Assembly: GCF_988242995.1 (NCBI RefSeq)
Contig: NZ_OZ547043.1
DNA: 64,000 bases
Reading direction: 5' to 3' (one strand)
The stretch's first letter is position 1. Every line of letters begins with the position of its first letter. The notes under the pieces were generated by a model, which saw only the letters and a list, made by a program, of their open reading frames with translations, did no database searches and was not told the origin of the DNA. Below are positions 61,564 to 62,096 of this stretch, piece after piece. The translations under genes were made by a program, and so were the position numbers.

Positions 61564-62096
61564 ACACAAACGCATCGAGGGTGCTGGCGTGTTGCCAGCC
61601 CCACCCCCTCCGAAATGATCCCCCAAAAAGTACAAAATGATCCTCCATTAACGAACAGAAAACAAACAAACAAAGAGCAACAAATAAGCATTATTTACAA
61701 TTCTTGACAAAAACACCCCCTATTTATAACCCTACCAAATTTAAAATTACATCTACAAAACAATAAGTTACAAAATCAGCAACGGATCATTTCGAAAAAA
61801 ACGGTTAGTCCCTTTTTCGAAAAGGGATCATTTTGTTGCTTAAACTCATATGCGGATTACATATCAATACGCTAGTGATAGCCGTTCTGGAATGCCACAG
61901 AAACGCGCTGTAATCGATTCTGGCGCAATTAGCTGTGCTAGGTAATGATTTACCTATCTGGGGATGTTGCGCACGTCTGGATTGCGTTACCACCGAAGAT
62001 TGTGCGCGTATGGTGGCTGTTACGGTCGCCTCCCGACAACGCAAAATTGCGGCGGCACAGTCGGTTTACCGCGCTAACACGGCTTGATTCACTCGC

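Follow-up and report, generated by a model that had tools for sequence, protein, structure and literature searches.

The gene-free stretch at 61564-62096 of the window (the whole 64-kb piece of Escherichia coli chromosome analysed here) lies in a ~9-kb island resembling phage-inducible chromosomal islands (PICIs), and carries four clustered copies of a GATC-containing motif that also recurs in the pacA genes of D6-like phage-plasmids, members of the P1 family. From this sequence match we propose that 61610-61840 may be a mimic of a D6-type pac site, through which a phage-plasmid helper would package the island by the headful mechanism; we regard this as about an even prospect.

A clustered GATC motif shared with D6-like pacA

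The 9-mer AAATGATCC occurs exactly four times in the window, two copies per strand and all within 221 bp (61613-61833; M1 to M4, Table 1). Given a whole-window expectation of 0.79 copies, and with none of 100 shuffles reaching four, the repeat is far beyond chance. Conservation was compared across eight sequences that are 95-99% identical, the window and seven related islands (six from E. coli, one from E. albertii). Among the seven relatives, the only change within the four 9-mer cores is at 61792, where L006 has G for T. One base beyond the M2 core, position 61644 is T in the window and C in all relatives.

An earlier, sequence-only reading of this stretch had centred on the palindrome TCCCTTTTTCGAAAAGGGA (61809-61827), with the GGATCATTT repeats (M3 and M4) as its flanks. 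All three elements are present as stated, but the emphasis is better reversed, and the two AAATGATCC copies at M1 and M2 had been overlooked. Six of the seven relatives carry an uncompensated change in the 5' arm of the hairpin, at 61810 or 61811, and the conserved 3' arm is simply part of M4; the repeated motif thus appears to be the functional unit and the palindrome incidental.

In P1, pac occupies the 5' part of pacA and is built of TGATCA/G hexamers, four to one side and three to the other of an integration host factor (IHF) site and the cleavage positions; processing of the site is dependent on Dam methylation (PMC10028697; primary work by Sternberg and Coulby 1987/1988 and Skorupski 1994, as cited there). 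Across the first 46 kb of D6, the sole dense GATC cluster sits in the part of pacA equivalent to P1 pac. We compared pacA from D6, from a 92% relative and from two lineages on plasmids of E. marmotae and E. fergusonii (~64% identical here), and found five GATC sites at identical positions in all four (nt 316, 368, 396, 434 and 447). Invariance reaches 90% in the site cores, compared with 42% for the surrounding, poorly conserved lysine-/asparagine-rich linker. That the sites fall in differing reading frames, where they encode D-H, G/R-S and M-I-P, indicates that the constraint acts on the DNA. By analogy with P1, these repeats presumably form the D6 pac site, which we predict at pacA nt 316-447 (3714-3850 in the D6 sequence, L013).

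The consensus of the D6-like pacA sites, AAATGATCCC(T), is the motif of the island. Single island sites match single pacA sites over 11-15 nt: M4 shares the 15-nt AAGGGATCATTTTGT with the nt-368 site of the E. marmotae-type pacA (plasmid L017), M1 has GAAATGATCCC in common with the nt-396 site, and the 12-mer ACAAAATGATCC of M2 is both the reverse complement of M4 and identical to the nt-368 site of L017. A position weight matrix (PWM) built from the 20 phage sites only was scanned over both strands of the window (128,000 positions), and the best three positions were M3, M1 and M4. With a shorter PWM, all four copies scored at least 15.4 in every relative (M2 scoring 15.4 there) and no other window position reached 15. 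Sister islands without the module gave scattered single matches only, and a PWM built without D6 placed four of its eight matches in 182 kb within the D6 pac region. As a match between sequences, the correspondence of the motif to the D6-like pacA repeats is solid. The D6-type PWM found nothing at P1 pac, and the island repeat is also unlike the P1-type TGATCA/G hexamers; the predicted specificity is therefore D6-type, not P1.

Table 1. Features of the gene-free stretch and its surroundings, with positions in the 64-kb window
Feature	Position	Strand	Description
isrK-like and C4-type antisense RNA genes	56725-56913	+	Upstream of icd; Rfam C4 76 bits, isrK 47 bits (gathering score 50)
Iteron cluster 1	59780-59945		Directly 3' of the primase-helicase gene, the canonical PICI-type origin position
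orf69	61354-61563	+	Final backbone gene ahead of the variable slot; phrog_7206, E = 2e-6
M1	61613-61621	+	Exact 9-mer AAATGATCC, extended CCGAAATGATCCCCCA; D6-derived PWM 16.1-16.6; core invariant in seven relatives
M2	61635-61643	+	Exact 9-mer, ACAAAATGATCCTCC; 22 bp after M1
A+T-rich spacer	61645-61783		71% A+T, between the motif pairs, ~140 bp; holds the (AAAC)n slippage tract
Promoter-like element	61704-61730	+	TTGACA (61704-61709), 15-nt spacer, TATAAC (61725-61730)
IHF-consensus-like site	61758-61770	+	AAACAATAAGTTA; one mismatch to WATCAANNNNTTR; invariant in relatives
M3	61784-61792	-	Exact 9-mer (reverse strand CGAAATGATCCGTTG); top PWM score of the whole window, 16.9-17.7
Hairpin/palindrome	61808-61828	+	Terminator-like in the window; 3' arm belongs to M4
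M4	61825-61833	-	Exact 9-mer (reverse strand ACAAAATGATCCCTTTTC); PWM 14.0-16.6
Block A	61893-61955		63 bp; conserved across subfamilies differing in iterons and cargo; 5% variable columns
RefSeq hypothetical-protein ORF (open reading frame), 50 aa	61935-62087	+	Annotated in some genomes only; judged no gene
Iteron cluster 2	62096-62225		GACTTGTCCCACC x3, A+T-rich spacer, inverted GGGACAGGT-type repeats; second, crr-like replication site
PmgG-like gene, 198 aa	62526-63122	+	phrog_1114, E = 9e-60; 72% aa identity to phage D6

Spacer, promoter-like element and hairpin

No part of the stretch varies more than the spacer separating the two motif pairs (20% variable columns over 61648-61780 vs 4-10% elsewhere). 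Its (AAAC)n tract (61659-61672) gains or loses one unit between islands, which is ordinary slippage. The IHF-like sequence within the spacer, AAACAATAAGTTA, is of the same variant type as AAACAAAGAGTTA, the IHF site annotated in P1 pac; with a match of this kind arising in 43% of shuffles, it is not significant alone. To the left of the motifs, the C-rich tract CCAGCCCCACCCCCTCC singled out by the sequence-only reading is present, at 61595-61611 and not one base further on at 61596-61612, and shows no sign of importance.

The TTGACA hexamer, whose coordinates in the sequence-only reading were correct, has no -10 partner at 16-18 nt; TATAAC, after a suboptimal 15-nt spacer, is the best partner, and a promoter scan did not report it. 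The P1 late (Lpa-dependent) promoters LPpac and LP23 carry a -22 box, A(A/T)GTGACTT, followed after four bases by a -10 hexamer; the box is absent from 61690-61740. The GATC repeats could instead form an operator or epigenetic switch, binding a regulator of the island or the host, maybe in a Dam-sensitive manner as in pap-type switches, and so controlling a TTGACA-15-TATAAC promoter; transcription would proceed rightwards across Block A and reach iteron cluster 2, perhaps activating replication or expressing pmgG. Inverted repeat pairs do lie around the promoter-like element, with a GATC in each repeat, and both hexamers are invariant among relatives while the spacer between them varies. Yet among sequences 95-99% identical, 12 unchanged positions carry little weight (a chance of ~0.07 at the variation rate of the spacer), the 15-nt spacing is poor and uncalled, no ORF follows for 800 bp, and the motif is found nowhere else in the island, for instance at other promoters. 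A switch would also leave the match to D6-like pacA repeats unexplained, and we consider it unlikely.

The same promoter-like element figures in the small-RNA option of the sequence-only reading, spelled out here as a transcript of ~100 nt running from TTGACA to the hairpin as terminator, perhaps as a partner of the island's ProQ/FinO protein. A terminator-like hairpin followed by a T-rich tail, a fold z-score of -2.5 for 61730-61840 and the presence of a ProQ/FinO-domain gene in the island would suit such an RNA. The hairpin is the sole terminator-like site in 61200-62600, and since shuffles yield 1.3 such sites it is unremarkable alone. Its predicted stability falls from -9.5 kcal/mol in the window to -5.2, -4.9 and -2.6 kcal/mol in relatives, the level of shuffles, as G-C pairs of the stem mutate uncompensated in the six relatives noted above, and the one conserved arm is that within M4. 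Moreover, an Rfam search in E-value mode of 55000-64000 gave no match within the gene-free stretch, and the region is missing from sister islands that keep ProQ. A small RNA or terminator is thus not supported, and we rate the small RNA as highly improbable. To the right of the motifs, RNA folding of 61841-62095 was unremarkable (z-scores -0.9 for one strand, -1.4 for the other).

That the stretch contains no credible ORF, as the sequence-only reading had stated, was borne out, candidate ORFs being frameshifted in relatives or without a family match. The annotated 50-aa ORF is broken by 1-nt and 2-nt indels at ~61951-52 in L007-L010 and has no Pfam or PHROG family, and a 75-aa ORF and a minus-strand 79-aa ORF likewise carry frameshifting indels in relatives and lack a family match. 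In a 37-aa ORF (61964-62077), also without a family match, five of six variable positions are first or second codon positions. Most differences between the window and L002 in a 17-codon ORF within Block A alter the amino acid, and no ribosome-binding site was seen there. BLAST of the gene-free stretch returned no match in the phage collection and chance fragments only among plasmids, and a gapped-motif scan of viral contigs gave unrelated chance matches only.

The sequence-only reading had further suggested a cos or pac site. The pac half of this suggestion gained support from the match to D6-like pacA repeats and from two further segments shared with D6, whereas cos sites of lambda or P2 type were not found. 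No lambda/phi80-like cosN (GGGCGGCGACCT) was present within one mismatch; matches with two mismatches occurred at chance frequency, the copy at 62023-62034 lying at the most variable spot of its region. P2-type cos (GGCGAGGCGGGGAAAGCAC) gave no match within three mismatches, and no sid, psu or delta genes are annotated.

The island and its relatives

The island (54416-63300) is inserted at tRNA-Pro between yejM and yejO of the E. coli chromosome, and strain LH13-b is 100% identical over the query. It encodes, in order, an integrase, an AlpA-type helix-turn-helix protein, an ash pseudogene, an Icd-like gene, DUF4222 and a 711-aa DUF927 primase-helicase, followed by iteron cluster 1, SSB, ProQ/FinO, PerC, orf69, the gene-free stretch, iteron cluster 2 and the 198-aa gene. 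Gram-negative PICIs are defined by int, an alpA-type activator, and pri-rep with an origin of two iteron sets around A+T-rich DNA, all of which the island has, and also by a length of about 10-15 kb and the lack of phage structural and lysis modules (Fillol-Salom 2018); the island measures ~9 kb, and the pmgG homologue is its only structural-type gene. An A+T-rich region between two iteron sets is the known form of PICI origins, and PerC alleles are known PICI cargo (PMC6092414). The island annotation contains no gene named Rpp or terminase subunit and no capsid genes. For attR, we found no direct repeat of at least 12 nt shared with the tRNA-Pro end.

A coding sequence (CDS) is annotated at orf69 in L006 and L010, none in LH13-b, and a CDS of similar size follows PerC in L002-type islands; the sequence pattern of the orf69 product (R..W ... 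DWEY at the end) is reminiscent of DUF2829-type phage proteins, but a Pfam search gave no match. The ProQ/FinO gene has an in-frame TGA at 60648-60650 in the window vs TGG in LH13-b, which splits a 178-aa protein; the FinO domain could still be produced from an ATG at 60657.

Sixty-six complete E. coli genomes contain the full stretch at 95% identity or more, and E. albertii has it as well, while ~48 further E. coli genomes match over 60-70 bp only, at Block A, with ~84% identity. The islands of these further genomes (L002, L003, L005) have the same backbone with different iterons (GTTTGCGGGTTAT, standing in place of the cluster 2 repeats, and not GACTTGTCCCACC) and three large unannotated cargo genes between the ORF after PerC and Block A. 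In L005 (3879-11540), for example, these genes encode ~840, 690 and 920 aa alongside a small one; all are hypothetical in the three islands and may form a defence system. At the same chromosomal site, a third type of island carries a different sequence again in the slot. By this comparison, the stretch is evidently made up of three parts: a variable accessory slot (61564-~61880), which holds the motifs; a family-wide element (61893-61955); and a subfamily-specific part (61956-62095), which is highly conserved inside the subfamily (4-6% variable columns).

Two related loci differ more strongly. At 11528-12220 of L004 (NZ_CP101263.1) lies a decayed island in which a truncated integrase is joined to 61877 onward, everything from int to the motif cluster having been deleted. 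In L142 (NZ_LR134079.1, NCTC9112), positions 1-6140 carry an icd-like gene, DUF4222, DUF927, iterons, SSB and PerC, then major capsid and head decoration genes; this locus is a capsid-forming-PICI-type relative of the island family.

The position of the motifs in a cargo slot bears on whether they are leftover DNA without function, either from an emptied slot or from a decayed phage pacA fragment. Such a remnant would sit where 61564-61880 does, at the place of the three large genes of sister islands, and a deletion remnant ends at 61877. A degraded pacA gene was tried and rejected: since similarity is confined to the 11-15-nt motifs and blastx was empty, the island segment is not decayed pacA; nor is it a gene fragment, the order and spacing of the motifs being unlike those in pacA. 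Moreover, all four motif cores have been retained while adjacent bases change, and a functionless remnant is distinctly improbable.

The proximity of the iterons raises a further alternative, in which Dam-methylated repeats and A+T-rich DNA serve iteron cluster 2 as an accessory unwinding or sequestration element. GATC repeats of oriC or P1 oriR provide the model. For PICI origins, a layout with A+T-rich DNA set between inverted repeats has been reported (PMC6092414), and the motif cluster lies 260 bp from the iterons. Against this, sister islands that have Blocks A and B, even with other iterons, lack the module and carry cargo genes in the slot; at both clusters the primase-helicase's own iterons already flank an A+T-rich spacer; and ATGATCC is absent near D6 repA/oriR. 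We think an accessory origin function improbable.

In both subfamilies, the second iteron cluster begins ~140-200 bp downstream of Block A, which holds the imperfect palindrome GCGCTGTAATCGATTCTGGCGC; one possibility is that Block A is a protein-binding site tied to the crr-like replication region. A hairpin within Block A (61923-61938, GCGCA-ATTAGC-TGTGC) shows a single compensatory pair relative to L002 (ACGCA-CTTAAT-TGCGT), and one pair is no evidence. When genome contigs were scanned with the Block A core, the sole match was an E. albertii island belonging to the same subfamily. Right after iteron cluster 2, Block B (62226-62450, ~225 bp) opens with TTTTGTATATATATACGAAAAATTGCATTC; conservation of at least the first 75 bp extends to more than 200 E. 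coli genomes and spans island subfamilies, and Block B may be an unwinding region or have an end-of-island function.

Proposed packaging by a D6-type helper

The homology of PmgG to D6 directed our attention to the P1 family. Searched by tblastn in the phage collection, PmgG homologues were found in the P1 family only (D6, P7, P1, SJ46, RCS47 and similar), with D6 closest, and the homology to D6 reaches into the non-coding DNA upstream of the gene (71% nt identity over 681 nt). The gene is present in the window island and in LH13-b, but most sister islands lack it and have yejO ~600 bp past the iterons. This gene may be a tail or baseplate gene captured from the helper, possibly serving interference. 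The isrK-like and C4-type RNA genes of the island, together with the start of icd, are in turn homologous to the second of two C4/icd/ant loci in D6 (69.5% over 315 nt), a weak link because RNAs of the C4 type are also found outside the P1 family. Of 5426 complete E. coli genomes, 99 contain D6-like phage-plasmids, which are likewise present in Salmonella and Shigella, so that helpers are available.

The island is rich in Chi sites (GCTGGTGG), with 12 in 8.9 kb (1.35 per kb), ten of them on the + strand. The flanking 54 kb likewise hold 12 (0.22 per kb), with the opposite bias, ten being on the - strand, and D6 has 0.58 per kb. This richness and orientation fit DNA that is handled as linear ends or concatemers recombining after injection. 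The P1 genome paper, Lobocka et al. 2004, reportedly calls P1 'particularly rich in Chi sites'.

Under the proposed mechanism, the island would excise when a D6-like phage-plasmid goes lytic, and would replicate from its own primase-helicase and iterons into concatemers. The PacA/PacB pacase of the helper is predicted to bind the Dam-methylated (A)AATGATCC repeats, as the P1 pacase does with TGATCA/G, and IHF may bend the spacer. A predicted cut near the repeats would then start headful filling of the helper capsid with roughly ten island copies, and after injection, recombination between the repeated copies, favoured by the many Chi sites, would recircularise the island.

How far the stretch resembles a P1-family pac site can be judged by three properties: GATC repeats in two groups around a central region, repeats that match the pacA of the cognate phage, and the same repeat number, spacing and orientation as in the phage. 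The island has two pairs of repeats around a 140-bp spacer, and these match the D6-type sites. Like P1 pac, it has two GATC-repeat clusters around a central region, in which the island has the IHF-like sequence described above as a candidate counterpart of the P1 IHF site, with the shared core (A)TGATC and a comparable extent (~220 bp vs ~160 bp in P1); unlike P1 pac, with its 4 + 3 TGATCA/G hexamers inside pacA, it has TGATCC repeats arranged 2 + 2 in non-coding DNA with a longer spacer. With the D6-like repeats it shares the extended motif and the long identities to single sites; those repeats, presumed by analogy to be pac, are embedded in coding sequence.

Several observations weigh against a pac-site mimic. 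Repeat number, spacing and orientation all differ from the phage: the island has four sites spaced 22/146/41 bp in the order M M rcM rcM (rcM, reverse complement of M), whereas D6-like pacA has five, spaced 52/28/38/13 bp in the order rcM rcM M rcM M, and P1 has its 4 + 3. Single high PWM matches turn up about once per 15-20 kb in unrelated DNA, and only the cluster is significant. No mapped D6 pac site was found in the literature or in the two D6 records inspected, so that the phage side of the match rests on analogy with P1. A pure pac site needs neither of the two invariant promoter-like hexamers. Sister islands of the L002/L143 type share the backbone and have no motif cluster in the slot, and the module is therefore not universal. 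Sister islands without the cluster are also Chi-rich (0.4-1.0 per kb); the Chi sites accordingly support a satellite lifestyle generally, not pac specifically. Among the listed strains, no island co-occurs with a D6-like plasmid, and as only ~1.2 co-occurrences were expected this comparison has no power.

Satellites that carry the packaging signal of their helper are already known. P4 (P2 cos), SaPIbov5 (cos) and EcCICFT073 (lambda-like cosN and Rpp) resemble the island in being small, integrative, terminase-less and self-replicating elements with a helper packaging site, and such cos satellites, for example EcCICFT073, are packaged as multimers in full-size capsids (PMC6092414, PMC6739421). 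They differ in using the cos sites of siphoviral or P2-type helpers, whereas the candidate here would be the headful pac of a plasmid-living myovirus of the P1 family. Gram-negative and capsid-forming PICIs share with the island int, an alpA-type regulator, pri-rep (DUF927), iterons around A+T-rich DNA and PerC alleles; the island differs in lacking capsid, terminase and Rpp genes and in having a second iteron cluster and a gene derived from the P1 family.

Helpers with recognised satellites include P2-type, lambdoid and staphylococcal phages and ICP1, and in the literature we found no described satellite of P1-family phage-plasmids. We therefore put forward, tentatively and with more doubt than confidence, that this island family is the first recognised satellite of P1/D6 phage-plasmids, with a Dam-dependent, multi-repeat pac site that copies the helper's in function but not in repeat order, a helper-derived C4-type immunity RNA and sometimes a tail or baseplate gene of the helper that may interfere with it. 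The new elements would be the helper class and a multi-repeat, Dam-linked headful pac site in a satellite that has no terminase subunit of its own. Phage-plasmids of the P1 family are frequent in E. coli, Salmonella and Shigella, act as major generalised transducers and bring resistance genes with them. The proposal also predicts the pac site of D6-like phages, at the pacA interval given above. If it is true, there would be a compact 230-bp element that could direct DNA into D6-type capsids, useful for phagemid delivery. It would also mean that a satellite can mimic a headful pac site without encoding a small terminase of its own, and it would name a helper for an 'orphan' family of PICI-like islands found in ~1% of complete E. 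coli genomes.

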